Shown here: positions 7,261 to 37,432 of the stretch, in pieces
Layout of the letters: every line of letters starts with the position of its first letter
Position numbering within the stretch: position 1 is the stretch's first letter
Origin: an uncultured Candidatus Saccharibacteria bacterium
Lineage (GTDB): Bacteria > Patescibacteriota > Minisyncoccia > Phycocordibacterales > UBA12088
Reading direction: 5' to 3'
NCBI GenBank assembly: GCA_964567265.1
Contig: CAZMLK010000002.1
Coordinates: 204,813 to 242,244, forward strand
Length of the DNA stretch: 37,432 nucleotides
The notes under the pieces: generated by a model
What the model saw: the letters and a program-made list of their open reading frames with translations, nothing else
Databases searched by the model: none
Told to the model about the DNA's origin: nothing
Program-made: the position numbers and the translations under genes

Positions 7261-7268
7261 ATTGTTTG

Positions 7269-7341
7269 TAGGCGCGCCTGGACTCGAACCAGGAACCGCC
7301 GAGGTATAAGCTCGGTGCTCTAACCATTGAGCTACGCGCCC
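7269..7341 (-). tRNA. tRNA-Ile with anticodon UAU
   Basis: The reverse complement folds as a cloverleaf. The arms are GGGCGCG-TA-GCTC-AATGGTTA-GAGC-A-CCGAG-CTTATAC-CTCGG-CGGTT-CCTGG-TTCGAGT-CCAGG-CGCGCCT-A. The anticodon loop is CU-UAU-AC. There is a G1-U72 wobble, discriminator A, and no encoded CCA. Confidence 0.85.
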
Positions 7342-7523: not shown

Positions 7524-9491
7524 ATGAAGAATGCTATCGTCCCCGCCGTGCTCCTGTTTGCCGTTATGGTTCCAGGAGCTTTTGTCAGTGCTGCTTCGAT
7601 CCAGCTTCCTGAGGTTGATGCGCTCCGAGCAGCGATCCAAAAGCAGGTTGATTTGAAGAAACAGGAAGCGTATGACAAGGTCTGTGCCAAGATTCTGCCC
7701 CTGAAGCAACGCTTCCCTCAGATCAATCTCCCGCCATACTGCATCGCTCAGCCGGAGCAGGAAGCCCCTTCGGTCACGCTCACTGCTCTCCCACTCACTG
7801 TGCAGGTGGGTGCAAGCTCGCTCCTTACCTGGACATCAACCGATGCTGATTCCTGCGTAGCTTCGGGCGGCTGGAGCGGCGCAAAGGCGCTTTCGGGCAG
7901 CCAGAGCGTTACTGTTTCCGCAACAACCACCTACACGCTCGCGTGTGTGAACGAAGCAGGGACCACCACGAAATCGGTGACCGTAAATGCGACACCCGTC
8001 CCTCCATCGCCGACACCGACCGTTACCTTGAACGCATCTCCGCTCGCAGTGCAGGTCGGTTCGACCTCGACACTTACGTGGACCTCTGCGAATGCGAGCG
8101 CATGCGTCGCCTCAAACGGCTGGGCGGGAGCGAAAGCACTTTCCGGTAACGAAGTCGTGACGTTGAACGCAACCACGACCTACACCCTTGCCTGCGGCAA
8201 TGGGTCATCGACCTCGACGCAATCGATTACCATAAACGCAACACCGGTACCGGTCATTCCAACACCGACCACTACGCTTTCTGCCGCACCGCTTACCGTC
8301 CAGGTGGGAGCGACTACGACACTCACTTGGAGTTCAGCGAACGCAACTTCCTGCACGGCCTCGAATGGCTGGGCGGGCGCGAAAGCCCTCTCAGGGAATG
8401 AGGTTGCGACCGTGAATGCGACCACCACTTATACGCTTGCCTGTGGGAATGGCGCATCCACCTCGACACAGTCTGTGACCGTGAATGCGACTCCGATTCC
8501 TCCCGCAACCCCGTCACTGACTCTGACCGCATTGCCGCTTACCGTGCAGGCTGGAGCAACGACGACACTTACCTGGGTTTCCGTGAATGCGGGTATTTGT
8601 GAAGCTTCGAACGGTTGGACGGGTACGAAAGCAGTATTCGGAAGCGAAGTCGTGCTCGTGAACGCAACAACGACCTACACACTTGCGTGTGGGAACGGTA
8701 CGGCAACCTCCACCGAATCGGTGACGGTGAATGCTGCCCCTGCTCCAGTCCCGCCGACGCTGACCTTCACCGGCTCGCCCCTCCAGATTACTGCAGGGGC
8801 AACCTCGACACTCACTTGGAGTTCAGCGAACGCAACTTCCTGCACGGCCTCGAATGGCTGGGCGGGCGCGAAAGCACTTTCCGGTAATGAAGTGGTGGGG
8901 CCGCTTGCGACCACGACCTACATCCTCGCATGTAGCGGTACGGGTGGCGCAACTTCGACCAGTGTGACGATCGGGGTCACGCCGACCACCACCCTCATCG
9001 GTCATGTCGTCATTAGCGAGGTCTACTATGATGTCGATGCGATCCACGGCGCAGAGCCAGCAAACGAATGGGTGGAGCTCTTCAACGCGAGTGCGAACCC
9101 TGTCGACCTGAACGGCTGGAAACTCCAGGATGAAAGCGGGCTCTTCGATACAATCGCGACAACATCACTAGTAATCGCGCCGAACGCATTCCTTCTCATT
9201 ACGAATTCGACGACGACGCCGAGCTTCTGGACGAATTTCACTCCGGTCGTTTTCCTGAACAGCCCTATCGGAAATGCGCTTGGGAACGCGCAAGATTCAG
9301 TCGTCCTTATGAACGCGGCATCGACGACTATTGATGCGGTCAGTTGGGGAACGGCAACGACGACCTCGGTCATGGTGCCGACCGTTCCGGATGTTGCGAC
9401 TGGCCATTCAATCGGCCGCATCCAGTTCACTGCAGACACCGACACGAACGCGGACTGGGGTAATTTCGCATCCCCAACGCCTGCGCAATAA
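7524..9491 (+). CDS. secreted surface protein: signal peptide, 5 tandem Ig-like Cys-pair repeats, and a C-terminal lamin-tail domain (LTD)
   Basis: N-terminal signal peptide MKNAIVPAVLLFAVMVPGAFVSA. Five repeats of 76-83 aa follow the pattern TLxAxPLxVQxGxxxxLTWxSxxAxxCxASxGWxGxKAxxGxxxVxxxATTTYTLAC. The C-terminus HVVISEVYYD...NEWVELFNAS...VDLNGWKLQD is typical of LTD domains. Confidence 0.9.
   Translation: MKNAIVPAVLLFAVMVPGAFVSAASIQLPEVDALRAAIQKQVDLKKQEAYDKVCAKILPLKQRFPQINLPPYCIAQPEQEAPSVTLTALPLTVQVGASSLLTWTSTDADSCVASGGWSGAKALSGSQSVTVSATTTYTLACVNEAGTTTKSVTVNATPVPPSPTPTVTLNASPLAVQVGSTSTLTWTSANASACVASNGWAGAKALSGNEVVTLNATTTYTLACGNGSSTSTQSITINATPVPVIPTPTTTLSAAPLTVQVGATTTLTWSSANATSCTASNGWAGAKALSGNEVATVNATTTYTLACGNGASTSTQSVTVNATPIPPATPSLTLTALPLTVQAGATTTLTWVSVNAGICEASNGWTGTKAVFGSEVVLVNATTTYTLACGNGTATSTESVTVNAAPAPVPPTLTFTGSPLQITAGATSTLTWSSANATSCTASNGWAGAKALSGNEVVGPLATTTYILACSGTGGATSTSVTIGVTPTTTLIGHVVISEVYYDVDAIHGAEPANEWVELFNASANPVDLNGWKLQDESGLFDTIATTSLVIAPNAFLLITNSTTTPSFWTNFTPVVFLNSPIGNALGNAQDSVVLMNAASTTIDAVSWGTATTTSVMVPTVPDVATGHSIGRIQFTADTDTNADWGNFASPTPAQ
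7770..8984 (+). repeat. five in-frame tandem repeats (about 228-249 nt each) inside the LTD protein gene
   Basis: Repeat starts are at aa 83, 166, 249, 331 and 412. A 68-nt block is 100% identical between repeat 3 (8319-8386) and repeat 5 (8808-8875). Confidence 0.9.
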
Positions 9492-26350: not shown

Positions 26351-26490
26351 GGGGCAGTGAGTTATACACATAAAAGAGGGAGGGGGCGAGCGTCCTGTCC
26401 TATAATTATTATCGTACCTCTTTGCAAATAGATTCGTGCGGAAGACGGTCGTGTTCAATAAGAAGTGTCATTAGTAATAGTCTGTTTTTT

Positions 26491-26982
26491 ATGGATAGTA
26501 CGTACAAGCGAGGTTTCACCCTCATCGAACTCCTCGTCGTCATCGCCATCATCGGTATCCTCTCGTCGGTCGTTCTCGCCTCGCTCTCAAGTGCCCGCCA
26601 GAAGGCACGTGATGCACAGCGTCTGTCGGACATGCGCGAAGTCTCAAAGGTCATCGCCCTTACGCAGGGAAATGCGGCAACAACCATGACCGGCTGTGCC
26701 TCCCAGAATGCACGCCTTAGTACCTGCACCGTCACCTTCGTCGACTTGGCTCAGTACAAGGATCCGTCTGGCTCGACCACTGCATGTACCGCCGCATCGG
26801 TTGCCGGTACCGCCTGTGACTACTCCATCTCGCTTCTTGCAGGTGGCGCCGGAAACCCGACCAACGAGAATTGGCACGTGAAGTTCAACCTCGAAGTCGG
26901 AGCAGGCTCGCTCCCTGCAGGGCTCAACTGTATCAAGGGCCCGACCGGCTCATTCGCGAGCGGCGCGACGAACTGCCCGTAA
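26491..26982 (+). CDS. type IV major pilin candidate, paralog 1
   Basis: The ORF track entry 26422..26982 was trimmed to ATG 26491. Class III signal MDSTYKRG|[22 protein letters not shown] with Glu+5. Three Cys pairs and a C-terminal ...NCP. Confidence 0.9.
   Translation: MDSTYKRGFTLIELLVVIAIIGILSSVVLASLSSARQKARDAQRLSDMREVSKVIALTQGNAATTMTGCASQNARLSTCTVTFVDLAQYKDPSGSTTACTAASVAGTACDYSISLLAGGAGNPTNENWHVKFNLEVGAGSLPAGLNCIKGPTGSFASGATNCP
26507..26682 (+). repeat. pilin N-terminal identity block (copy in paralog 1)
   Basis: 100% identical to 27205-27380. The subsegment 26516-26640 is also identical to 27935-28059. Confidence 0.9.
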
Positions 26983-27000
26983 TACAACATCGGTTGGAGA

Positions 27001-27034
27001 TACAAAATACCCCCGAAGCGGGGTTATTTTGTAT
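27001..27034 (+). terminator. terminator after pilin paralog 1
   Basis: TACAAAATACCCC-CGAAGC-GGGGTTATTTTGTA forms a stem with one bulge. Confidence 0.6.
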
Positions 27035-27189
27035 AAAAAAGACGGCAGCGCAGCGGTTTATCCACACATTGAAGGGAAGACTTTGCAGTTCTGTCCTATA
27101 ATTACCGCTGTACCTTCTTGCAAAGCTATTAACACGCAAAGACGGTCGCACTCTCTATAGGTAATTACTCATAGCCATAGTTTGTTTTT

Positions 27190-27678
27190 ATGAATACATC
27201 TTCGAAGCGAGGTTTCACCCTCATCGAACTCCTCGTCGTCATCGCCATCATCGGTATCCTCTCGTCGGTCGTTCTCGCCTCGCTCTCAAGTGCCCGCCAG
27301 AAGGCACGTGATGCACAGCGTCTGTCGGACATGCGCGAAGTCTCAAAGGTCATCGCCCTTACGCAGGGAAATGCGGCAACCGCGCTTGCTGGCTGTACCG
27401 CAGCAAATGCTCGCCTTACTACGTGTACGGGCGCATTCGTCGATCTCGCGCAGTACAAGGATCCGTCTGGCTCGACCACTGCATGTACGACTGCCGCAGT
27501 TGCAGGTACTGCTTGTGACTACGCGGTGGCTAAGATTTCAGGTGCCGCTGCAGCGACCAATGAAGATTGGTCGGTCAAATTCAACCTCGAAGTCGGAGCA
27601 GGCTCGCTCCCTGCAGGACTCAACTGTATCGTTGGTCCTACCGGAGGTTTCAAGAGCGGAACGACGAATTGTCCGTAG
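27190..27678 (+). CDS. type IV major pilin candidate, paralog 2
   Basis: MNTSSKRG|FTLIELL... A 176-nt block is identical to paralog 1 (27205-27380 equals 26507-26682). Same Cys pattern and ...NCP end. Confidence 0.9.
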
Positions 27679-27702
27679 GCAATACGATACCTATTTGGAA
27701 CA

Positions 27703-27735
27703 CCGTCCTGCTGCATGAGCGCAGGGCGGTTTTTC
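27703..27735 (+). terminator. rho-independent terminator after pilin paralog 2
   Basis: CCGTCCTGC-loop-GCAGGGCGG followed by TTTTT. Confidence 0.7.
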
Positions 27736-27910
27736 GTCTGAGTATCGGCATTTTCGCGAGCGCAGTTGACTCCGGAGTCTCGAATAACCGGAAACGCCCC
27801 GGATTATCAACAGGGGATTCGCTCGTGGCTGCCTGATTCATGCGTCGATGGGGTAGTATAGAGAAGTAGTCCAGATTGATTTTTAAGTAACTGCAAAACC
27901 CTGCATTAGT

Positions 27911-28408
27911 ATGAATACATCACGAACTCGCGGCTTCACCCTCATCGAACTCCTCGTCGTCATCGCCATCATCGGTATCCTCTCGTCGGTCGTTCTCGCC
28001 TCGCTCTCAAGTGCCCGCCAGAAGGCACGTGATGCACAGCGTCTGTCGGACATGCGCGAGATGTCGAAGGTGATCGCGCTTACGCACGGCACGGCAGCAA
28101 CCACCTTTACGGGATGCGTCCTTCAGAATGGCCGGCCGTCGAGTCCTGCATGTACTGGTTCATTTGCCCAGCTCGCGCTTTACAAGGACCCTTCAGGTGC
28201 AACGACCGCATGTACGGCGGCATCAGTGGCGGGCACGGCTTGTGACTACTCCATATCCAAAGCTGCAGGCGGAGCCGGAGCAGCGTCGAATGAGGATTAT
28301 CAAATCAAATTCAACCTCGAAGTCGGAGCAGGCTCGCTCCCCGCAGGGCTCAACTGTATCGTCGGGCCTTCTGGAAGCCTGAAATCCGGCGCCGCAAACT
28401 GCCCGTAA
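27911..28408 (+). CDS. type IV major pilin candidate, paralog 3
   Basis: MNTSRTRG|FTLIELL... A 125-nt block is identical to paralog 1 (27935-28059 equals 26516-26640). Same Cys pattern and ...NCP end. Confidence 0.9.
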   Translation: MNTSRTRGFTLIELLVVIAIIGILSSVVLASLSSARQKARDAQRLSDMREMSKVIALTHGTAATTFTGCVLQNGRPSSPACTGSFAQLALYKDPSGATTACTAASVAGTACDYSISKAAGGAGAASNEDYQIKFNLEVGAGSLPAGLNCIVGPSGSLKSGAANCP

Positions 28409-28878
28409 TGCGATTCGTATACCACAAAGAGCGCCACTTTCAGGGCTTCACGCTGATCGAGCTTCTGGTGGTAATCTCCATCATCGGCATCCTCTCGACG
28501 GTCGTCCTGAATTCGCTCGGGACGGCCAGGCTGAAGGGTCGCGACGCGACGCGAATCTCGGACCTAAAGCAGATCCAGTTGGCACTTGAACTCTACTTCG
28601 AGTCGGGTAACAATGCCTATCCTGCGGCACTCTCAAACCTTTCTCCGCAGTATGTGCAGACGGTGCCACGCGACCCGCGGACAGGGAACAACTACATTTT
28701 CGAACAGACGGGAAGCGGTACCGGATACCATGTCGGAGCTCTCCTCGAGCTCTCGAATGACATCATGCTGACCGACGCAGACGCGACGACCACCAGCTTC
28801 GGCGGCGCCACGTCTGATTGTGCGACGACTGGCATTACCGTCGCTGCCAATGAACGCTGCTACGATATATCGCAGTAA
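28408..28878 (+). CDS. type IV pilin-like protein (GspG/PilE-like), upstream of pilD
   Basis: MRFVYHKERHFQG|[16 protein letters not shown] with Glu+5. Contains the RDATRISDLKQIQLALELYF motif. Its start overlaps the previous stop (TAATG). Confidence 0.88.
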   Translation: MRFVYHKERHFQGFTLIELLVVISIIGILSTVVLNSLGTARLKGRDATRISDLKQIQLALELYFESGNNAYPAALSNLSPQYVQTVPRDPRTGNNYIFEQTGSGTGYHVGALLELSNDIMLTDADATTTSFGGATSDCATTGITVAANERCYDISQ

Positions 28879-28899
28879 GCCTATGCGCTGAATATCCCT

Positions 28900-29721
28900 G
28901 TGGAAACTCTCATCGCTACGTACATATTCGTACTCGGTCTCCTGGTCGGGAGCTTCGTGAACGTGCTTGTCCTTCGGCATGAGACAGGGGAGGGGGTCGG
29001 TGGAAGATCCCATTGCGGCAAATGCCGCCGCCAGCTCTCTTGGTTCGAGAATGTTCCGCTCCTTTCGTTCCTCGTGCTTCGCGGCAAATGCCGTACCTGT
29101 AGAGAACGAATCTCGTTCCAGTACCCTCTTGTCGAACTCCTGACCGCATCACTCTACCTCCTCGTGTGGCAGGCAGCCTTTCCGCTCCCGCGAACCATTC
29201 TGATCCTCCTCGCGACCCTATTCCTGGTTGCCATTGTCGTCTACGACCTCAGGACCACCATCATTCCCGATGAATTTGTTATTCCGTGGAATCTGCTCGC
29301 GTTCCTGTCGGTTTTTATCGGGACAAGCGCCGTCACGATGCCCTCGATCGCAGCATTTCTGGCTGGACCGCTCCTCGCGCTGCCGTTCGCGCTCCTCTGG
29401 GTCATGTCGGGCGGTCGGTGGATCGGACTCGGCGATGCGAAGCTCGCGCTCGGCATGGGCTGGTTCCTCGGATTGATACCTGGTTTTTCTGCGGTGATAC
29501 TTTCATTCTGGATCGGCGCCGTAACCAGTCTCCTCCTCCTGGCCCTCAGCAAGGTTCTCCCCCATATCGTGAAGCTCCTCCCATTGCCCTCAAGTACTCG
29601 TCACCTTACAATGAAGAGCGAGGTGCCGTTCGCGCCATTCCTGGTCATTGGCTTCTATATCGGCCTCCTGAGCCACATCGATCTCTTCGTACTGCCGATT
29701 CGCGCGCTTGGCGGATTCTAA
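28900..29721 (+). CDS. pilD: prepilin peptidase (A24 family) PilD
   Basis: 273 aa with a GTG start. N-terminal LVGSFVNVLVLR, Cys pairs CGKC...CRTC, catalytic Asp contexts VVYDLRTTIIPDE and GLGDAKL, and a polytopic topology. Confidence 0.92.
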   Translation: METLIATYIFVLGLLVGSFVNVLVLRHETGEGVGGRSHCGKCRRQLSWFENVPLLSFLVLRGKCRTCRERISFQYPLVELLTASLYLLVWQAAFPLPRTILILLATLFLVAIVVYDLRTTIIPDEFVIPWNLLAFLSVFIGTSAVTMPSIAAFLAGPLLALPFALLWVMSGGRWIGLGDAKLALGMGWFLGLIPGFSAVILSFWIGAVTSLLLLALSKVLPHIVKLLPLPSSTRHLTMKSEVPFAPFLVIGFYIGLLSHIDLFVLPIRALGGF

Positions 29722-29734
29722 TTTGAAACAGCAT

Positions 29735-30199
29735 ATGCAACGGTTCCTGATGAAATTGAAATCCGACCCGGCACGCGGGTTCTCGCTCATCGAGCTCTTG
29801 GTCGTGATCACCATCATCGCGGTCCTGACGACGCTCACCATTTCAGGGCTCAACTCTGCACGCATCAAGGGCCGGGATGCGGATCGCGTTTCCGATATCA
29901 AGCAGATACAGCTTGCGCTCGAACTCTATTACGACGCAAACCACTTCTATCCGAACAGCACGACTGAGACGGCCGTGACGACCGCACTTGCAGGGTTGGT
30001 GAGCGGGGGATTCATGGCGGTGATCCCGGATGATCCGCTGACGACCCAGCACTATATGTACAAGAGCAGCTCCGCGAGCGGTTCCACCGCATACTGCGTA
30101 GGCGCGAATCTCGAGGGTGCATCCCAAGGAGCATCAACCTGCACTACGCCTACCCTCACGGCGACGTATGATTACAGCGCGGGTCCCCAGGGCCCATGA
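29735..30199 (+). CDS. type IV pilin-like protein, paralog of 28408..28878
   Basis: ...KSDPARG|[16 protein letters not shown] with Glu+5 and RDADRVSDIKQIQLALELYY. The start could be ATG 29735 or ATG 29750; the ORF track TTG 29708 overlaps pilD. Confidence 0.85.
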   Translation: MQRFLMKLKSDPARGFSLIELLVVITIIAVLTTLTISGLNSARIKGRDADRVSDIKQIQLALELYYDANHFYPNSTTETAVTTALAGLVSGGFMAVIPDDPLTTQHYMYKSSSASGSTAYCVGANLEGASQGASTCTTPTLTATYDYSAGPQGP

Positions 30200-30867
30200 T
30201 GGAAGGAGAACGCATGAGTACTTTTCAGAAAATAATCGCAGCGCTCCACGTCCCACGCACGGGCCGTGCTTCGTTTTTGCAGAATGCCGCTTCGCGCGGC
30301 TTCACGCTCATCGAGCTTCTGGTGGTCATATCGATAAGCATGCTCCTCCTCCTCTCGGTCCTCTTTCTCGATATCGGCCCGAAGGGGAAGCCGTCCGTCG
30401 ACACTGCGGCGCAGCAGCTCTCTGTCATCGTGCGGCAAGCGCTTGCGTACGGCCTTGCAATCGTCGGAACGAACAACAACTTCGATGTCGGCTATGGCGT
30501 ACGCGTGAATACGAATGCGGCGACGCAGGCGATCCTGTACGTCGATGTCAACAAGAATAACCTCTTCGATGCGGGGGACACTACCATGCAGACGCTGACT
30601 TTTCCTTCCGACGTAACCGTCCAGAAGTTCTGCGTCGACAAGGGGAGCACCCCTACGTGTTACAACGCAGGTGCATCCAGCAACGCGCTCGACATCAGTT
30701 TCGCGCGCTCATCGTTCATCGGCGTCATCTCGGTCACGCCGAATGGAGGTTCTGCGGACAAGACGTGGGCCACGACGACGATCTATCTCCAGAGCGCCTC
30801 GGATCCGGCAATCATCGAGCAGGTGAAGGTGAATCGAGCCGGACTTGTTGATATTATCGGCATATGA
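30196..30867 (+). CDS. minor pilin (GspH/FimT-like)
   Basis: ...NAASRG|[16 protein letters not shown] with Glu+5. ATG 30196 (ATGA coupling) would give a 35-aa leader. An in-frame TTG at 30277 would give a typical 8-aa leader, so the start is ambiguous. Confidence 0.8.
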   Translation: MMEGERMSTFQKIIAALHVPRTGRASFLQNAASRGFTLIELLVVISISMLLLLSVLFLDIGPKGKPSVDTAAQQLSVIVRQALAYGLAIVGTNNNFDVGYGVRVNTNAATQAILYVDVNKNNLFDAGDTTMQTLTFPSDVTVQKFCVDKGSTPTCYNAGASSNALDISFARSSFIGVISVTPNGGSADKTWATTTIYLQSASDPAIIEQVKVNRAGLVDIIGI

Positions 30868-31388
30868 ACCTGAACCGTATTTTCAAAAAGAACAAGGAGA
30901 CTGAGAAGGGATTCACCCTCGTTGAGATGATGGTCTCCGTAGCGCTCTTCGTCATCATCATGATGGTCTTGGTGGACTTGTTCATCTCGCTCCTCGTCGC
31001 GAACCGCAAGGCGCAGTCGCAGAAGTTTGTCTACGACAACGTGTACAGCTCGATTGAGATCATCACGAGGCATATCCGTTCGGGAACCGGATATAATTGC
31101 CCCGGGGGAGCGTGCTCGACATTCTCGTTCACGGACGCGGATGGAAATTCCGTGACCTATCGGGTCCAGAACGGTGTCATCCAGCGTTCAATGAACGGAG
31201 GTGCCTATGATGACATCACGGCGGGAAACATCACGATCGACAATCTCAAATTCTATACGTTCGGCGATAATGTGACCCAGCAGGAGCGCGTCCTCGTCAT
31301 CATCGCGGGGAAGGCGGGTACGGGGGCCACGCTCTCGACCTTCACCGTGCAGACGACCATCTCGCAGGCGCTCCTTACCGAATTTTAA
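30864..31388 (+). CDS. minor pilin (PilW/GspJ-like)
   Basis: MNLNRIFKKNKETEKG|FTLVEMMVSVALFVIIM with Glu+5. ATGA overlap with the previous gene. Confidence 0.8.
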   Translation: MNLNRIFKKNKETEKGFTLVEMMVSVALFVIIMMVLVDLFISLLVANRKAQSQKFVYDNVYSSIEIITRHIRSGTGYNCPGGACSTFSFTDADGNSVTYRVQNGVIQRSMNGGAYDDITAGNITIDNLKFYTFGDNVTQQERVLVIIAGKAGTGATLSTFTVQTTISQALLTEF

Positions 31389-31389
31389 T

Positions 31390-31950
31390 ATGCAGCATTC
31401 CACCAACAATCAGGCAGGCTTCACGCTCATCGAGACTCTGGTCGCGCTCACAATCATCACGATCGGCATCATCGGGCCCCTTACACTCCTCCAGCGGAGC
31501 TTGAATGCGACCGTATATGCCAAGGAGAAGGTGACGGCGATCTTCCTCGCGGAAGATGCGCTCGAATACCTGAAGAATGTTCGAGACAGCGATGCTTTGA
31601 GCGCCATGACGGACCAGAATACGGCAACCGACTACTTTTTCGGGGACATCATCCCGAAGTGTCTCGACAAGAGCTGCAAGATCGAGACGACGACTGATTA
31701 CCCGAGCGACCACGCGACCAATCCGAGCGTGACGGTCTGTTCCGGCACCTGCGCCGCCTTGAATTACAGCCCATCTCTGGACGTGTACAGCTATAAGACT
31801 GGCTCTGATTGGGCTGCGTCCGTCTACACGCGGACGATCATCATCACTAAATTCGCTTCAGGCGAATATAAGGCGCAGGTGAAGATGACGTGGAAAGGGC
31901 ATACGGTCGTCATCGAGCGCAACTTCCAGAACATCGTGCGCAATATCTAG
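31390..31950 (+). CDS. minor pilin (PilV/GspI-like)
   Basis: MQHSTNNQAG|FTLIETLVALTIITIGI with Glu+5. 186 aa. Confidence 0.8.
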   Translation: MQHSTNNQAGFTLIETLVALTIITIGIIGPLTLLQRSLNATVYAKEKVTAIFLAEDALEYLKNVRDSDALSAMTDQNTATDYFFGDIIPKCLDKSCKIETTTDYPSDHATNPSVTVCSGTCAALNYSPSLDVYSYKTGSDWAASVYTRTIIITKFASGEYKAQVKMTWKGHTVVIERNFQNIVRNI

Positions 31951-31970
31951 CAGCTACTGTATAACTCCGA

Positions 31971-31999
31971 GTGACAGGAAAAACGCCGCTCGATATACT
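31971..31999 (+). promoter_or_regulatory. promoter-like GTGACA-N17-TATACT upstream of the large adhesin gene
   Basis: GTGACA at 31971-31976 and TATACT at 31994-31999. It is part of a motif of about 24 nt, TACTGtATAACTCcGAGTGACAGG, that is repeated upstream of the second adhesin gene. Confidence 0.45.
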
Positions 32000-32088
32000 G
32001 GACATGCATCGCACTACCTCCGCACACGGCTCACACTTTTTATTACTTGCTTCCAATCTTTGGAGCCTGATCCATCCGACTGCGTTCT

Positions 32089-35000
32089 ATGAACACTAAC
32101 AAACTCAAATCCGCCCTCGCCCGACTCCCACGCGGGGAAGGATTCACCCTCCTCTACGCCATCATCATGGTGGCAGCAGTCCTCTTCATCACCACCTCAG
32201 CACTCTTCCTTCTCACGAGGCAGGTCCGTTTCGCCACCATCTCCAATGACTCCCAGGATGCCTACTACGCTGCAGAGTCTGCAGGCGAATGCATCCTCTC
32301 CTACGCCCAGGCCGGCGTGTTCGACAAGGGCATCGTCCAGGACATCGTGTGTGATGGGGTGACGTATCGTACTGACGGGTCTCCGAAGCAGACCTTCAAG
32401 ATCAAAATCACGAACCCGACGACAGGTCTCGAGACGGTCGCGATCGTCACTGTTGATACGGTAAAGAAGACTATCGATTCCCTCGGATATAACAGCGATG
32501 ACGAGACGCTCCCCACCCGCCTCCAGCGCGCCATCACCTTCCGCTACAAGTCGTATTGTCCGATCGGAGGGGACGTGATGATCCTCGCGGACACTTCAGG
32601 CAGTATTGATGCTTCAGAATTGGTCATATACAAGAAATCGATCAAATACCTTATAGACAGGATTTATGCGGCCGAACCGACCACCAACGTTGGTCTGATC
32701 GAGTTTAATACAAATGCGCAGGTCAGAGACAACATGAAAGCGTTGAATGCAGGAACATATCTCGCAGATCTCAAGGCGGATGTGGATTTGCTGGGTGAGT
32801 ACTCGGGGCGCACTCACACTTCGATCGCTCTTCGTAGTGCATGGCTTCAATTCCAGGACTTGAAGGACTCGAGCTCCAATTCCTATGATCCGACAGGCAT
32901 CTTTAACAGTGATTCACCTCCGGCCGAAATGAGTGGCGGCATGATCGAGGGGGCTGATATTGTCCCCATCAACCCTCCCGTGAATCGCGATGACGAAGAG
33001 TATTCGAATCATGTGATCCTTTTCACGGATGGCGGACCGAACGACTGGATTTCCACAAGCTCAGTCCGTATCAGTGGCGTGTTAAAACCGAAAGGGTTTT
33101 ATATTGACTCCCCGTGCAAATGGAATGCCGATGGCTCGGTGTACGCCGACAGTAATGACACGGCTCCAGGGTGCTATAAGGGTGCCTTCACCATTCCCGC
33201 GCAGTATAGTTTCATGAAAGAGGCGACGAACCTTAAGACGCTTGCAACGCTCTATACGGTTGCGATCGGTCTCGGCACCGACCCTGATGGAGCAGGATCA
33301 GATGAGTGCCTTCCGGGCGTCACCTGCCTCCAGCAGATGCAAGAGGCGGCAACCACGCCAGATCTTTCGTGGGTGGCAAATGATTTCAACGAAGCCCGGC
33401 TGAACCAGATCGCCGACGAAATTCTTGCCTGCAATATTCCGATCAAGAATGGAAACACCGCGCCGATCGTCCTCGGCGGCTATCCGACAGGCTCACTCCC
33501 GCAGGGGACGACCCAGACGACTATGTCGGTGACCACCAATGAGGATGCCCAGTGCAAATGGAGCACGGGTGACGTGTCCTATGGCGCGATGGCGAATACG
33601 TTTACGACTACCGGTACCAAGTCCCACTCGACGACGTTGACCGGCCTCACCAACAATACTTCCTATACGCGTTACATCCGTTGCCAGGATTCAGGAGGGC
33701 TCGAAAGCACGCCAGGCTACATCATCAGTTTTTCTGTCGCAGCAGGCTCGAGCGATACGACAGTTCCGTCGGTCCCCGCAGGACTCACTGCAAATCCCAT
33801 CTCATCAACCCAAATCAACTTGTCATGGACAGCATCCACCGATAATGTTGCAGTGACAGGTTACGAGCTCCAGCGGTGCGCGGGGGCGTCGTGTACAAAT
33901 TTCACCAGCTTGTCGACGCCGACAGGGACTACCTACAACAATACGGGCCTTACTGCCGGAACAACCTATCGCTACAAAGTTCGCGCGCGCGACGCCGCTT
34001 CGAACTGGTCGGCATATTCTTCAATAGTGGATGGTGCAACCTCCGCGGGTGCCGTTTCCATTCCGACAGGCTATCTTGCTTATTTCCCCTTCAATGAGGG
34101 AAGTGGCGCAACGGCTGCGAATGCCGCGGGATCAGGGAATGCATCCCTCCTCGGCACCTATTCGTGGGTCACACGCGGATCCGGGAACGCTATCGATTTC
34201 AATGGGGCATCAGGCCGCGCATCAGTCGGGGACGTCACCTTCCTCGACGGACTCAGTAAAGCCACGTTTGCTACCTGGATGAACTGGGACAGTAAATCGA
34301 CCAATTCAAGTCAGTCGATCATGCGGAAGGACGGCACCATCACGCTCATGCAATCGAACAACAGCACCTCTCTTTGGCGTTCAACCATATGGGCACCGAC
34401 GAGCGTCGCGCATGCCGTCCCGCTTTCGAACATCCCGACCGGCACCTGGACGCATGTCGCGGTGGTCTGGGACAACAGTGTAAATTCCGGAAAACCGAAG
34501 CTGTATGTGAACGGTGCATTCGTGATGGATTACCCTACAGGGAGTACGGGCGTTACTGCAAATTCATCGAACGCGCTCATGTTCGGCGCAACCGAGTCAA
34601 ACACGGAATGGTACGACGGGAAGCTCGACGACGTGATTATCTACGGACGGGCGCTTACTGCTACCGAAGTGAATAATCTCTATAACGCAACGCAGACCTC
34701 CGCTCCCTCCGCTGATACGACCGCTCCAACCGCTCCAACCGGCCTCAGACTTCTAGACGATTCCGCTACGACCGTCGCGGTCGATTGGAACGCGTCGACC
34801 GATGCAGTCGGCGTCACTGGATATGAAGTGCAGCGTTGTACGGGTGCTTCCTGTACGTCATGGGTAACGGTTGAAAGTCCGACAGCGACCGATCATGAGA
34901 GTACGGGACTTTCCGCGGGAACCGTCTACCGGTTCCGCGTGCGCGCCCGCGATGCCGCAGGGAACTGGTCCGCGTACTCCTCGATTGTCGATACACAGAC

Positions 35001-35682
35001 AATCCCGACGAGCGGACTGATCGGCCAGTGGCTCATGGATTCGCAGACGGGCGGCGTCGTGAGCAGCAATCAGGGAAGCGGCTCCTACGGGGGGACGCTT
35101 ACTGGCGGCGCGGCCATCAATACGTCCGCCCCGGCGCATGGTGCGGGCGCGGTGCTTCTCGATGGCGTGAATGATATCGTCAACTTCGGAGACATCACGG
35201 AAATCAACGGAGCTCCTGATCTCTCAGTCTCTCTCTGGTTCAAGGATGCGAATGCGGGAAGTACTGCCGTGCGCGGGCTGTTTACGAAGTTCCAGGATCA
35301 GAACACCGATTTCCTGGCAGCGGTCGATAATGCAAACTTCTATATCGATCTCGGAAATGGTTCTGCGGACACCTATGCAAAATGGAATTTTGGAGCGGGG
35401 AATCTTGCGGGCAACACCTGGCATCATGCAGTGATCGTCTATGACGGTACCCTGGCTGCGGCAAGCCGTCTGAAGCTCTATGTCGACAATGTCCAGCGGA
35501 CGCTGACGTTCTTTGGTACCATTCCCGCGACGATCAACAGTGGACTTTCCGGCAATCCGTTCCGTCTCGGCACCCTTGATGGCTCATCAAAGTACTGGAA
35601 TGGCAGAATCGACTCTTTGCGCATCTACAACCGCGATCTCACTGCGAATGAAGTCGACGCGCTCTACAATCAGAAGCAGTAG
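32089..35682 (+). CDS. modular pilus-tip adhesin: PilX/GspK-like pilin anchor + vWA + Ig-like + FN3-LamG + FN3-LamG
   Basis: 1197 aa. Prepilin-like LPRGEG|FTLLYAIIMVAAVLFI has Tyr rather than Glu at +5. The vWA MIDAS elements are DTSGS, GRTHTS and LFTDGGPND. Two FN3 modules are present (GLTANPISSTQINLSWTAS...YRYKVRARDAASNWS and the related GLRLLD...YRFRVRARDAAGNWS). Each FN3 is followed by a LamG/ConA-like module ending ...GKLDDVIIYGRALTATEVNNLYN or ...GRIDSLRIYNRDLTANEVDALYN. Confidence 0.88.
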   Translation: MNTNKLKSALARLPRGEGFTLLYAIIMVAAVLFITTSALFLLTRQVRFATISNDSQDAYYAAESAGECILSYAQAGVFDKGIVQDIVCDGVTYRTDGSPKQTFKIKITNPTTGLETVAIVTVDTVKKTIDSLGYNSDDETLPTRLQRAITFRYKSYCPIGGDVMILADTSGSIDASELVIYKKSIKYLIDRIYAAEPTTNVGLIEFNTNAQVRDNMKALNAGTYLADLKADVDLLGEYSGRTHTSIALRSAWLQFQDLKDSSSNSYDPTGIFNSDSPPAEMSGGMIEGADIVPINPPVNRDDEEYSNHVILFTDGGPNDWISTSSVRISGVLKPKGFYIDSPCKWNADGSVYADSNDTAPGCYKGAFTIPAQYSFMKEATNLKTLATLYTVAIGLGTDPDGAGSDECLPGVTCLQQMQEAATTPDLSWVANDFNEARLNQIADEILACNIPIKNGNTAPIVLGGYPTGSLPQGTTQTTMSVTTNEDAQCKWSTGDVSYGAMANTFTTTGTKSHSTTLTGLTNNTSYTRYIRCQDSGGLESTPGYIISFSVAAGSSDTTVPSVPAGLTANPISSTQINLSWTASTDNVAVTGYELQRCAGASCTNFTSLSTPTGTTYNNTGLTAGTTYRYKVRARDAASNWSAYSSIVDGATSAGAVSIPTGYLAYFPFNEGSGATAANAAGSGNASLLGTYSWVTRGSGNAIDFNGASGRASVGDVTFLDGLSKATFATWMNWDSKSTNSSQSIMRKDGTITLMQSNNSTSLWRSTIWAPTSVAHAVPLSNIPTGTWTHVAVVWDNSVNSGKPKLYVNGAFVMDYPTGSTGVTANSSNALMFGATESNTEWYDGKLDDVIIYGRALTATEVNNLYNATQTSAPSADTTAPTAPTGLRLLDDSATTVAVDWNASTDAVGVTGYEVQRCTGASCTSWVTVESPTATDHESTGLSAGTVYRFRVRARDAAGNWSAYSSIVDTQTIPTSGLIGQWLMDSQTGGVVSSNQGSGSYGGTLTGGAAINTSAPAHGAGAVLLDGVNDIVNFGDITEINGAPDLSVSLWFKDANAGSTAVRGLFTKFQDQNTDFLAAVDNANFYIDLGNGSADTYAKWNFGAGNLAGNTWHHAVIVYDGTLAAASRLKLYVDNVQRTLTFFGTIPATINSGLSGNPFRLGTLDGSSKYWNGRIDSLRIYNRDLTANEVDALYNQKQ
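32098..32580 (+). repeat. 483-nt direct repeat, copy 1 (adhesin N-terminal module)
   Basis: 100% identical to 35909-36391 (offset 3811 nt). It covers codons 4-164 of both adhesin genes. Confidence 0.93.
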
Positions 35683-35711
35683 CGACAAAACGGGACTCTG
35701 ATTGCGATACA

Positions 35712-35746
35712 AAACACAAACCGCGGCTGCGCCGCTGTTTGTGTTT
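35712..35746 (+). terminator. terminator hairpin after the large adhesin gene
   Basis: AAACACAAACCGCGGC-TGC-GCCGCTGTTTGTGTTT forms a stem with one mismatch. Confidence 0.6.
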
Positions 35747-35771
35747 CTTGATGGATACTGGATAACTCTGA

Positions 35772-35801
35772 GTGACAGGGACAGGGAAGCGCCCGTATAC
35801 T
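35772..35801 (+). promoter_or_regulatory. promoter-like GTGACA-N18-TATACT upstream of the second adhesin gene
   Basis: GTGACA at 35772-35777 and TATACT at 35796-35801. It lies within TACTGgATAACTCtGAGTGACAGG, the same motif as at 31955-31978. Confidence 0.45.
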
Positions 35802-35899
35802 GAAGGAGAACTGAGAAATCCCTCACGCTGTCTTCAGGATCACGGCGATTATTAAATTAGATTAAGGTTCGTGCGCGGTGAAACGCAGCACGTGCAGGT

Positions 35900-37246
35900 A
35901 TGAATAACAACAAACTCAAATCCGCCCTCGCCCGACTCCCACGCGGGGAAGGATTCACCCTCCTCTACGCCATCATCATGGTGGCAGCAGTCCTCTTCAT
36001 CACCACCTCAGCACTCTTCCTTCTCACGAGGCAGGTCCGTTTCGCCACCATCTCCAATGACTCCCAGGATGCCTACTACGCTGCAGAGTCTGCAGGCGAA
36101 TGCATCCTCTCCTACGCCCAGGCCGGCGTGTTCGACAAGGGCATCGTCCAGGACATCGTGTGTGATGGGGTGACGTATCGTACTGACGGGTCTCCGAAGC
36201 AGACCTTCAAGATCAAAATCACGAACCCGACGACAGGTCTCGAGACGGTCGCGATCGTCACTGTTGATACGGTAAAGAAGACTATCGATTCCCTCGGATA
36301 TAACAGCGATGACGAGACGCTCCCCACCCGCCTCCAGCGCGCCATCACCTTCCGCTACAAGTCGTATTGTCCGATCGGAGGGGACGTGATGCTTGTCGTC
36401 GACAACTCAAGCAGCATCGATGACAGCGAGATGGCCGTATACAAGGCGAACCTGAAATACCTCGTGGATCGCATCTACGAAGCGGACAAGACGACCCGTG
36501 TCGGACTCATCACGTATGGAAGCGCGGCGAAGACTGTCTCTGACCTGGTCGCGCTCGATGACGGCAACCATTATGGATGGCTGAAGACCAAGATCGATGC
36601 CATGTCGAACATGGGCCGCACGCATACCTCGATCGCGCTCACTGACGCCTGGCTTCAATTCCAGAATCTCGAGGAGATTGATCAAGGCGGGGAGCCTCCA
36701 TACGACATCGTCAATTCGGATGGAGTAAAGCTTACCTCGGGAATGGTGACGGATACGCGCATCATCACCCCTGCCGTGAACCGTGATGATGAGGAGTTCT
36801 CGAATCACGTCATCCTCTTCACTGACGGCAGCCCGAATGACTGGATCGCGACATCATCCATCAAAGTCAACGGCATACTGAAACCGAAAGGCTTCTGGAT
36901 AGACACCCCGTGCAAATGGAAAGCAGACGGATCCATGTATGCAGACAATAACACTGTCCCCCCAGGCTGCGTGAAGCAGGCCGGAGTGTACACGATTCCT
37001 GCGCCGTACAGCTTCCTCACGACCGCAAGCAAGGTAAAATCACTCGCCACGCTCTACACCATCGCCATCGGCCTAGATGCGGGGGATGAAGAAGAGGAGT
37101 CGCTTTGCCTCCCGAACAAGACCTGCAAGCAGATCATGAGCGAGGCAGCGACCGACCCGAAGCTCGCCTGGATCGCAAACTCGTTCGATAAGGCACGTCT
37201 CGATGCCATCACGGACGAGATCCTTGACTGCGATCGACCTGAATAA
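35900..37246 (+). CDS. modular pilus-tip protein, short paralog: PilX/GspK-like anchor + divergent vWA domain
   Basis: 448 aa. Residues 4-164 are identical to the 1197-aa protein. The following vWA domain is roughly half identical (DNSSS MIDAS, GRTHTS, LFTDGSPND). The protein ends where the long paralog continues into its Ig/FN3/LamG modules. Confidence 0.88.
   Translation: MNNNKLKSALARLPRGEGFTLLYAIIMVAAVLFITTSALFLLTRQVRFATISNDSQDAYYAAESAGECILSYAQAGVFDKGIVQDIVCDGVTYRTDGSPKQTFKIKITNPTTGLETVAIVTVDTVKKTIDSLGYNSDDETLPTRLQRAITFRYKSYCPIGGDVMLVVDNSSSIDDSEMAVYKANLKYLVDRIYEADKTTRVGLITYGSAAKTVSDLVALDDGNHYGWLKTKIDAMSNMGRTHTSIALTDAWLQFQNLEEIDQGGEPPYDIVNSDGVKLTSGMVTDTRIITPAVNRDDEEFSNHVILFTDGSPNDWIATSSIKVNGILKPKGFWIDTPCKWKADGSMYADNNTVPPGCVKQAGVYTIPAPYSFLTTASKVKSLATLYTIAIGLDAGDEEEESLCLPNKTCKQIMSEAATDPKLAWIANSFDKARLDAITDEILDCDRPE
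35909..36391 (+). repeat. 483-nt direct repeat, copy 2
   Basis: 100% identical to 32098-32580. Confidence 0.93.
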
Positions 37247-37261
37247 GACTTTACGGGTATC

Positions 37262-37326
37262 CGCGAAAACGAACGAAAAACCATCCCTGACCATCACTTG
37301 GGGATGGTTTTTCGTTCGTTTTCGCG
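37262..37326 (+). terminator. 25-26-bp perfect hairpin after the second adhesin gene
   Basis: GCGAAAACGAACGAAAAACCATCCC, a 13-nt loop, then GGGATGGTTTTTCGTTCGTTTTCGC (37263-37287 with 37301-37325). Confidence 0.7.
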
Positions 37327-37358
37327 CCATGCCTTCCCATCGCTCCCGCGAAGGGAAA

Positions 37359-37367
37359 TGCTAGAAT
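37359..37367 (+). promoter_or_regulatory. extended -10 TGCTAGAAT exactly 6 nt before ATG 37374 (leaderless-type)
   Basis: TGCTAGAAT-aggcaa-ATG, read directly. Confidence 0.45.
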
Positions 37368-37373
37368 AGGCAA

Positions 37374-37432
37374 ATGACCGCGAAAACAGAGGCTAAAAAA
37401 CGTATCGATAAGCTCAGGGCGCTTATCGATTA
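37374..37432 (+). CDS. partial CDS (5' end only); N-terminus reminiscent of NAD-dependent DNA ligase
   Basis: MTAKTEAKKRIDKLRALID... runs off the window. The product call rests on only 19 residues. Confidence 0.35.
   Translation, partial: MTAKTEAKKRIDKLRALID

Follow-up and report, generated by a model that had tools for sequence, protein, structure and literature searches.

Tandem pilin-vWA genes with a perfectly identical pilin module at the end of a Saccharibacteria-like type IV pilus cluster

Two neighboring genes that close a type IV pilus cluster, here called A and B, share a run of nucleotides near their start and then part into clearly different heads, which raises the question of how perfect identity and old divergence came to stand side by side in a single gene pair. 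The window analyzed here, a 37,432-nt stretch of DNA, belongs to a Saccharibacteria-like (CPR/Patescibacteria) bacterium. Attachment to host bacteria is the way of life of cultivated Saccharibacteria and other CPR bacteria, and the choice of host is largely unexplained. Type IV pili, and PilX-type tip pilins especially, are the best current candidates for host picking (PMC11623550).

Results

Gene context and architecture of A and B

A and B close a complete type IV pilus cluster that consists of PilMNO-B-T-C, pilins, PilD, and three minor pilins, and the ORFs flanking the pair are pilins on one side and ligA-gatC-gatA on the other. The pair is encoded after the GspH-, GspJ-, and GspI-like minor pilins in a cluster with a prepilin peptidase, and the same order is found in the Saccharibacteria metagenome-assembled genome L001. 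The features, assigned by domain search unless stated otherwise, are as follows.

28900..29721, + strand: prepilin peptidase PilD
30196-30867, + strand: GspH/FimU-like core minor pilin, single-copy
30864-31388, + strand: PilW/GspJ-like core minor pilin, single-copy
31390-31950, + strand: PilV/GspI-like core minor pilin, single-copy
32089..35682, + strand: gene A, 1197 aa (ORF, domain search)
32098..32580, + strand: repeat copy 1, codons 4-164, pilin (putative pilus-docking) module (nucleotide comparison)
32581..33444, + strand: vWA head of A, about residues 165-452, MIDAS D-T-S-G-S...T...D (Pfam VWA)
33751..35679, + strand: C-terminal extension of A, two fn3 + Laminin_G_3 units
35900..37246, + strand: gene B, 448 aa (ORF, domain search)
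35909..36391, + strand: repeat copy 2, codons 4-164, pilin (putative pilus-docking) module (nucleotide comparison)
36392..37243, + strand: vWA head of B, MIDAS D-N-S-S-S...T...D (Pfam VWA)

The initial annotation had described a prepilin-like anchor followed by vWA heads in a gene pair, and the domain content and the position at the end of the pilus cluster support this view of A and B as tandem paralogs that encode pilin-like proteins. Gene A consists of a PilX/GspK-like pilin module, a vWA domain, an undefined beta-rich segment, and two units of fn3 plus Laminin_G_3/ConA-like lectin (residues 555-869 and 875-1197) that are 35% identical to each other. Gene B has the same pilin module with a divergent vWA head and ends directly after the vWA domain. 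As part of the overall explanation developed below, both proteins are probably modular minor pilins in which the pilin module is joined to the vWA domain by a short linker. Homology, predicted fold, and gene context together suggest that they are putative pilus-tip adhesins.

Exact-protein look-ups with full-length A and B gave no match, whereas the truncated products predicted for the k=31 contigs did. When B, and later an alignment of 20 sequences, served as the query of a word-indexed search, hardly any homolog was returned; the homologs were gathered by a full HMMER scan of the library.

A PilX/GspK-like pilin module

The module begins with MN(T/N)NKLKSALARLPRGEG↓FTLLYAIIMVAAVLFITTSALFLL, in which a short charged leader ending in Gly precedes a hydrophobic alpha1-N of ~20 residues, as in a class III signal. 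In both proteins the junction reads G↓FTLLY, so that residue +5 is Tyr and Glu5 is lacking; in the family alignments G18 and L22 hardly vary. Unlike all eight neighboring pilins, A and B gave no match to Pfam N_methyl (PF07963) or TIGR02532 at E≤0.01, and their scores against Pfam PilX_N (PF14341), 17.4 bits for A and 18.1 bits for B (about 17-20), lie below the gathering score of 25.5. A 60-member alignment (A4) was built from the 164-residue module, its L001 ortholog, and stand-alone homologs of ~150 residues from the library search. The A4 consensus contains G-F-x-L-L, 26 of the 60 members match PilX_N at E≤0.01 (best 5.3e-7), and some carry the name PilX from JGI.

When the library hits were scanned for the motif, Glu at +5 was found in none of the PilX-like modules, where the residue is Y/F/L/I/M and rarely V, N, or D. 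Among these hits Glu5 occurs only in P0003 and P0004, whose module is different (PilW/GspJ-like). GspK of the type II secretion system also lacks Glu5. Since the absence of Glu5 is a trait of GspK-type cap subunits, it favors a cap role for A and B and does not speak against their pilin nature.

The AF2 model computed from a 99-sequence alignment predicts a helix at residues 18-74 and strands at 85-152 (pLDDT 90-97; above 90 across residues 20-150), consistent with the lollipop fold of a long alpha1 helix on an antiparallel beta-sheet. The model from the single sequence reached a pLDDT of 39 and was not usable. A PDB sequence search with the pilin-module profile found no relative.

The vWA heads

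Pfam VWA scored 38.5 bits in A and 50.7 bits in B against a cut-off of 23.8, with only the first half of the profile aligned. The MIDAS residues D168, S170, S172, T241, and D309 do not vary among 20 family members, A and B included. Foldseek with B gave 57 matches in the PDB at E≤1e-3; nearly all of the 50 that are listed are vWA-domain proteins, among them SpaC, integrin I domains, factor B, ANTXR2, and PilB. The match to the pilus tip adhesin SpaC had an E value of 9.5e-7, and the match to the Streptococcus sanguinis pilin-vWA protein PilB (7ba2_B) extended over 414 columns (E 1.1e-4) with a low TM-score of 0.30. The head is predicted to adopt the Rossmann-like vWA fold, with loops 269-299 and 312-338 poorly modeled (pLDDT below 50). 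A PDB sequence search with B returned vWA matches that were marginal only. When the B head was compared with two other strains, all five of the five differences in each were synonymous, which at the sequence level demonstrates purifying selection.

Extent of the identical tract

The copies at 32098-32580 and 35909-36391 are the same at 483 of 483 positions (100% identity), just as the initial annotation had claimed, and no third copy was found within the window. Over residues 1-164 the sole difference between the two proteins is residue 3, T in A and N in B. The identity ends between M164 and I/L165 (DVM↓ILADTSGS in A, DVM↓LVVDNSSS in B), which confirms the abrupt stop reported at the first vWA residues. 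In the AF2 model this boundary falls on the junction at which the final pilin-module strand (146-152) gives way to the first vWA strand (163-168). Beyond it, identity over 278 aligned codons drops to 56% at the amino acid level, in agreement with the earlier estimate of vWA domains about half identical, and to 59% at the nucleotide and 38% at the third codon position. The same codon is used at only 72 of the 156 conserved residues. The tract has the marks of gene conversion: sharp ends, identity far above the expectation from its flanks, and homology on both sides.

Promoter-like elements and hairpins

Each gene is preceded by a promoter-like element and followed by a hairpin.

31955..31999, + strand: promoter-like element of gene A (24-nt block 31955-31978, GTGACA 31971-31976, TATACT 31994-31999)
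35712..35746, + strand: terminator-like hairpin 3' of gene A (region dG -23.7 kcal/mol, z -3.1)
35756..35801, + strand: promoter-like element of gene B (24-nt block 35756-35779, GTGACA 35772-35777, TATACT 35796-35801)
37262..37326, + strand: long perfect hairpin 3' of gene B (dG -53.9, z -11)

The block TACTGkATAACTCyGAGTGACAGG occurs in the window only at 31955-31978 and 35756-35779, against a chance expectation of 0. The -35-like GTGACA is separated from the -10-like TATACT by 17 nt in A and 18 nt in B, and within 27000-37432 these two elements rank highest among the sigma-70-like matches (10/12 each). The shared upstream motif of ~24 nt had been said to contain both hexamers; the block is indeed present twice, but TATACT lies outside it and the whole motif spans ~45 nt. 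The conservation of the motif between otherwise diverged spacers suggests that both elements may function as promoters. The hairpin after B has exact arms of 26 nt, forms 29 bp when folded, and in strain SRR28480386 keeps its stem with a loop 10 nt shorter. Of the terminator proposed for each gene, the hairpin itself was found in both cases, but the U-tracts are weak.

Relatives and age of the pair

The locus in L001 is syntenic with the window (PilB 79%, PilT 83%, and PilC 78% amino acid identity). It contains one A-like gene, which encodes the A ortholog P0002 (1202 aa) in the same position, with ligA directly after and no repeat. Between the window and this ortholog, the pilin module is 57% identical and the head about 55%, so that the module is not unusually conserved between species. 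With an ortholog in the nearest genome that is this different, the identity of the paralogs cannot be put down to purifying selection. Selection at the nucleotide level was also rejected as its cause.

The heads of A, B, and the L001 ortholog form one clade (300/300 bootstraps) with an unresolved branching order, which makes the duplication about as old as the split of the two lineages. Two copies of a PilX-like module were found in none of 81 other loci carrying such a module, indicating that the pairing is not general in the PilX-like family. A metagenome scan with a sub-alignment yielded 80 loci, none with a second PilX-like gene and with this head only in L002; the scan with the close alignment found no relative.

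Origin of the mosaic and alternative explanations

Segmental gene conversion between old tandem paralogs is the best reading of the A/B mosaic, and we consider it quite probable. Recent gene conversion or concerted evolution had been suggested from the window, and the combination of perfect identity, saturated divergence, and a 57% identical ortholog module supports that suggestion. Four other explanations were weighed against it.

The initial annotation went further and proposed that RecA-type recombination between the direct repeats would delete 3.8 kb and act as a population-level adhesin switch. Such a device for deletion (or amplification) would give rise to subpopulations that make the short head only, from the promoter of A. 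The perfect 483-nt repeats are indeed direct and 3811 nt apart, RecG is encoded in the window, and the deletion product would be an intact 448-aa protein, B with N3T, under the promoter of A. However, deletion is one-way and would result in loss, not switching. The repeat topology is kept in all three samples described below, with no variant without A found in k=31 data, which cannot show junctions. B is the only member of its cluster in the protein database, and hence no MNT...B-head chimera is on record. We therefore find a deletion switch doubtful.

A recent graft is unlikely as well. By such domain shuffling, the start and pilin module of A would have been placed before an old vWA gene, either independent or otherwise fused. 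Heads do move between carriers, since in P0003 and P0004 a vWA head of the same clade sits on a PilW/GspJ-like carrier (GFTL[VI]E). A graft is nevertheless at odds with the homology that extends past both ends of the tract. Upstream, the promoter block (92% over 24 nt) and TATACTG are common to A and B, and their 5'UTRs are about equally long; downstream, their heads align up to the final vWA residues. Homology on both sides is what an old duplication (roughly -130 to +1350) with internal homogenization predicts.

The structure could also be an assembly artifact, in which a repeat was collapsed or made chimeric or the alleles of two strains were joined in tandem, given that the window lies on a 242-kb contig of a metagenome-type assembly and that a 483-nt perfect repeat exceeds short-read length. 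This was rejected as very improbable on the basis of independent Logan k=31 assemblies of runs SRR16481186, SRR28480386, and SRR14932526. The contigs equal window positions 28312-32127, 32551-35938, and 36362 onward, and they break exactly k-1 = 30 nt inside the repeat ends in all three runs, two of which are strains differing from the window. With R for the repeat, the contig graph in the three runs is upA->R, R->headA->upB->R, and R->headB->ligA, the break pattern expected of a true two-copy repeat. An independent contig that leads from headA through upB into the repeat (32551-35938) could not be produced by a two-allele bubble at one locus.

Programmed diversification, of which the constant N-terminus and variable heads are reminiscent through the R64 PilV shufflon, is hardly credible: a shufflon or invertase was rejected because the repeats are direct and perfect and no recombinase is found among the flanking ORFs (pilins, ligA-gatC-gatA), a diversity-generating retroelement because these ORFs include no reverse transcriptase, and repeat-tract phase variation because no simple-sequence tracts were found. 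The only inverted repeats that involve A and B, besides the terminator hairpin, are a few imperfect 21-25-nt matches (78-81% complementary) to sites >5 kb upstream. No Rfam family scored above threshold.

Discussion

Under segmental gene conversion, ectopic homologous recombination would have overwritten codons 4-164 of one copy with those of the other, and both caps would thereby keep exactly the same docking surface. The heads would be too diverged for recombination, and selection probably favors their difference, so that they would stay apart. The shared pilin module would dock on the single-copy PilV/PilW/FimU-like minor pilins encoded just upstream, its presumed partners, and the head would then be exposed on the tip of the pilus, where it would bind a ligand, probably one carried by the host bacterium. 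With an apparent promoter and terminator hairpin for each gene, one pilus machine could mount either adhesive cap. Keeping the docking surface constant may be the selective reason for the homogenization.

Modular pilin-vWA adhesins and Saccharibacteria PilX tip pilins have already been published, and A and B are a fresh example of known principles. PilY1/PilC tip adhesins bear a vWA domain in P. aeruginosa and have several paralogs in Myxococcus and Neisseria. They resemble A and B in placing a vWA domain at the type IV pilus tip via core minor pilins and in having paralogous alternative tip proteins, but PilY1, which is no pilin, has a C-terminal beta-propeller as its defining feature, and A and B lack this domain. 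The R64 shufflon gives PilV a constant N-terminus and alternative C-terminal tips by means of the Rci recombinase and inverted sfx sites. The likeness lies in a type IV pilus whose one pilin anchor comes with alternative adhesive heads; Rci and sfx sites are both absent from the window.

The closest architectural parallel is S. sanguinis PilB, a bimodular type IV minor pilin with a pilin module and a vWA domain (PDB 7B7P/7BA2; PMC8179133). As in A and B, a short linker joins the pilin module to a vWA domain with a MIDAS (PMC8179133). S. sanguinis also has the modular pilin PilC with a ConA-like lectin module, and A combines both module types. Unlike PilB, A and B come from a CPR bacterium, have a PilX/GspK-type carrier without Glu5, and share that identical carrier as two paralogs, with about 750 extra residues in A; sequence similarity to PilB is not detectable.

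PilX1 and PilX2 of TM7x (Nanosynbacter lyticus), from the same phylum, are likewise the largest minor pilins of their type IV pilus loci and proposed tip adhesins, and they share the predicted lack of a canonical PilD signal (PMC11623550). Their accessory C-terminal domains are a lectin-like jelly roll and a beta-propeller, and a pilX2 mutant binds its host poorly (PMC11623550). Unlike A and B, they belong to two separate pilus systems and loci, and in a comparison by description neither a vWA domain nor a pilin module common to both in identical form is reported (PMC11623550). GspK is the tip cap within a GspI-J-K (PilV-W-X) tip complex (PMC7248040). A and B are similarly the last of the minor-pilin set in an H-J-I-K-like order, include the largest subunit, and match PilX_N weakly, whereas GspK has an inserted alpha-domain rather than a C-terminal vWA domain.

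Segmental conversion between adhesin paralogs is known from Helicobacter pylori babA/babB (PMC4552749) and from Neisseria pilE/pilS and others (PMC4534519). These also combine near-identical terminal segments with divergent ligand-binding parts, kept and shuffled by homologous recombination. They differ in having documented chimeras and silent cassettes; here, two expressed-looking genes lie in tandem and no chimeras were observed.

The locus is a textbook-clear case of segmental concerted evolution with its boundary on a domain junction, and it would mark the portion of the protein that has to be held constant for a fit into the tip complex. With their alternative tip heads on one and the same carrier, A and B are a natural pair that offers a clean handle on whether the head alone sets binding specificity. 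The contig break points in a second, 99%-identical strain weakly suggest that conversion is ongoing rather than a single event, although a mixture of strains in that sample could produce such break points as well. A far-reaching and rather doubtful extension is that A and B are interchangeable tip adhesins on one pilus machine of an episymbiotic CPR bacterium, that continuing conversion holds their docking modules identical, that the repeats delete, amplify, or re-assort the heads, and that the triplicated major pilin behaves alike. If so, strains or subpopulations would differ in the host surface that they recognize, and Saccharibacteria would have a recombination-driven host-range cassette system. 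The three tandem major-pilin genes of the cluster do show the same mosaic pattern as A and B, which suggests that conversion between pilin paralogs recurs in this genome.

Genes A and B carry an identical pilin module

The type IV pilus cluster in the window is complete (PilM, PilN, PilO, PilB, PilT, PilC, pilins, PilD, and minor pilins) and closes with two tandem genes, A and B, each of which encodes a pilin module followed by a vWA domain (the head).

Features of the cluster relevant to A and B
Cluster pilins: three tandem pilins and further pilins
Minor pilins preceding A and B: GspH-, PilW/GspJ-, and PilV/GspI-like
32089-35682, same strand as B: gene A, ORF of 1197 aa
35900-37246, same strand as A: gene B, ORF of 448 aa

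The initial annotation had described a perfectly identical 483-nt module. A position-by-position comparison at an offset of 3811 revealed that 32098-32580 and 35909-36391 match without a break over 483 nt, and thus the observation is real and exact. When the segment was compared to the window by blastn, only these two copies were found. The identical run spans codons 4-164 of both genes, and the sole difference between the proteins over aa 1-164 is at residue 3. Identity stops between M164 and I/L165, which agrees with the abrupt end initially placed at the vWA start. Over the 278 aligned codons past this boundary, A and B share 56% amino-acid (previously estimated as roughly half), 59% nucleotide, and 38% third-position identity, and the same codon is used at less than half of the conserved residues. 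Based on these values, synonymous sites have reached saturation beyond the tract but are unaltered within it. Each repeat copy also contains an identical 78-aa antisense ORF (32301-32537 and 36112-36348, - strand); these are most likely by-products of the duplication and not genes.

The upstream block TACTGkATAACTCyGAGTGACAGG, annotated earlier as a common motif of ~24 nt, occurs exactly twice in the window, where none is expected by chance, and the spacers before A and B align poorly outside of it. The two GTGACA-17/18-TATACT pairs rank highest among sigma-70-like matches in 10 kb. Stable hairpins are present 3' of both A and B, consistent with the initial assignment of one to each gene. Between B and ligA, a 26-nt perfect inverted repeat at 37262-37326 folds into 29 bp (dG -53.9 kcal/mol), exceeds an ordinary terminator in length, and has no counterpart in L001, a syntenic locus from a Candidatus Saccharibacteria MAG. 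Strain SRR28480386 keeps the stem intact and has a loop shortened by 10 nt. Upstream of ligA, the sequence GAAATGCTA(G/A)AATAGG (promoter-like GAAATGCTAgAATAGG) is kept in the window (37340-37376) and in L001 (13640-13675), and is likely the ligA promoter with an extended -10. Since this promoter-like sequence is common to both genomes, B is placed 3' of A and 5' of the conserved region upstream of ligA.

The repeat is present in two genuine copies

The possibility of a misassembly, raised in the initial annotation, was addressed with Logan contigs, which are independent k=31 assemblies of sequencing runs. The starting point was the minor pilin encoded immediately 5' of A, whose exact product is found on contigs from SRR16481186 and SRR28480386. 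These contigs correspond to window 28312-32127, and both end 30 nt (k-1) inside the repeat. Based on these stops, the next contigs were predicted to begin at 32551 and 36362, and both predicted truncated proteins were found on look-up, in contigs drawn from three runs (SRR16481186, SRR28480386, and SRR14932526). A 3388-nt contig (window 32551-35938) runs from head A through the spacer before B to 30 nt of repeat copy 2, and further contigs begin at 36362 and run via head B into ligA-gatC-gatA. This de Bruijn topology is that of a genuine two-copy direct repeat and not of two alleles at one locus, and it makes an assembly artefact very unlikely.

The SRR28480386 strain has 33 differences from the window in the 3816 nt upstream and the same break points, which suggests that the tract boundaries are the same in this strain, a pattern that strain mixture in the sample could mimic. 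A tract older than the strain split and not renewed since then should have accumulated ~3-4 differences between its copies; the 0 seen (P about 0.02-0.07) are a weak hint that homogenisation of the tract is continuing.

In the hypothetical adhesin switch of the initial annotation, the two repeats would recombine with loss of 3811 nt, and the remaining gene, B with N3T behind the A promoter, would be intact; such a deletion would be irreversible. No recombinase, simple-sequence tract, or RNA family match was found, nor were there convincing inverted repeats between the copies.

Relatives and origin of the mosaic

The sole close relative is L001, which is syntenic with the window (PilB 79%, PilT 83%, PilC 78%, and pilins 48-64% identical). 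PilD (28900-29721, L001 6902-7744) is only 44% identical, as compared to 78-83% for PilB, PilT, and PilC. L001 has one A-like gene only (1202 aa), which begins 19 nt past the preceding minor pilin, lacks its own spacer and motif, and is directly followed by ligA-gatC-gatA. An internal repeat was looked for in the L001 locus and was absent. The L001 ortholog is 57% identical in the pilin module and about 55% in the head. The module therefore does not evolve slowly, and the paralog identity cannot be put down to selection. In a tree, the heads from A, B, and the L001 ortholog group together with full support, the branching order within this clade being unresolved, and thus B arose by duplication, or was acquired, at about the time the lineages split.

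Each of 80 metagenomic loci that encode a PilX-like module has just one such gene, and the A/B-type head is confined to the window, L001, and one further locus (L002). Two proteins from the HMMER scan, P0003 and P0004, have a head of this clade mounted on a PilW/GspJ-like minor pilin with Glu5. The heads are therefore mobile modules, and the pattern indicates shuffling between minor-pilin carriers. In P0003 and P0004, Cys-rich 'CGNxxCEWGE' linkers come before the head, and the C-terminal tails after it are also rich in Cys.

The best-supported origin is an old duplication followed by segmental gene conversion of codons 4-164, and the gene conversion or concerted evolution proposed initially is well supported. 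The duplication of gene A would have extended from roughly -130 to +1350 (promoter, 5'UTR, pilin module, and vWA), after which codons 4-164 would have been overwritten. A likely reason for the module being held identical is that both caps, the proposed pilus-tip subunits, have to fit one set of minor-pilin partners present in single copy, and the heads would be free, or selected, to differ. Having diverged, the heads would no longer recombine, which would fix the sharp boundary. The same mosaic is found in three tandem major-pilin genes at 26486-28408 (starts near 26494, 27190, and 27911), in which divergent middles are flanked by an N-terminal block of ~150 nt, identical in all three, and by ~55 nt of conserved sequence at the 3' end. 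This shows that exchanges of this kind have happened repeatedly in the genome. The first two copies have a common TGTCCTATAATTA promoter-like box, and the L001 counterpart of the triplet is a single gene.

Predicted products of A and B

A full HMMER scan with B returned 334 relatives, the majority of them about 150 aa long, stand-alone, and matching aa 16-153. The PilX-like modules picked up by a motif scan of the library hits begin G-F-T-L-L, and none has a Glu at +5. Pfam PilX_N was matched by 26 of the 60 aligned module sequences, and PilX is the JGI name for some module relatives. In a minority of the relatives, the PilX-like module is followed by a vWA, with invariant MIDAS residues D-S-S-T-D. 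AlphaFold2 (99-sequence alignment) modelled aa 20-150 of B as a long helix plus beta-sheet (pLDDT 90-97), the predicted fold being a pilin lollipop. In the model, residues 163-168 form the first vWA strand, and therefore the conversion boundary falls on the module junction. Foldseek matches include the SpaC pilus tip adhesin, integrin and factor B vWA domains, and, over 414 columns, the S. sanguinis pilin-vWA protein PilB. Gene A encodes two extra fn3 + Laminin_G_3 (ConA-like lectin) units. Two other strains each differ from the window at five positions in the B head, all synonymous, so B is a maintained gene.

By analogy to the published behaviour of S. sanguinis PilB (PMC8179133), TM7x PilX1/PilX2 (PMC11623550), and the GspK cap (PMC7248040), we infer that A and B are tip adhesins; such functional labels are reasonable. 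Neither the protein architecture nor the evolutionary process is of a new kind. What is new is their combination in a CPR pilus cluster, which provides a tidy example with some experimental value.

Elsewhere in the window, a 655-aa ORF with a Lamin Tail Domain (7524-9491) probably encodes another surface protein, and a tRNA-Ile with anticodon TAT, an uncommon bacterial isoacceptor, is located at 7268-7341 (- strand).
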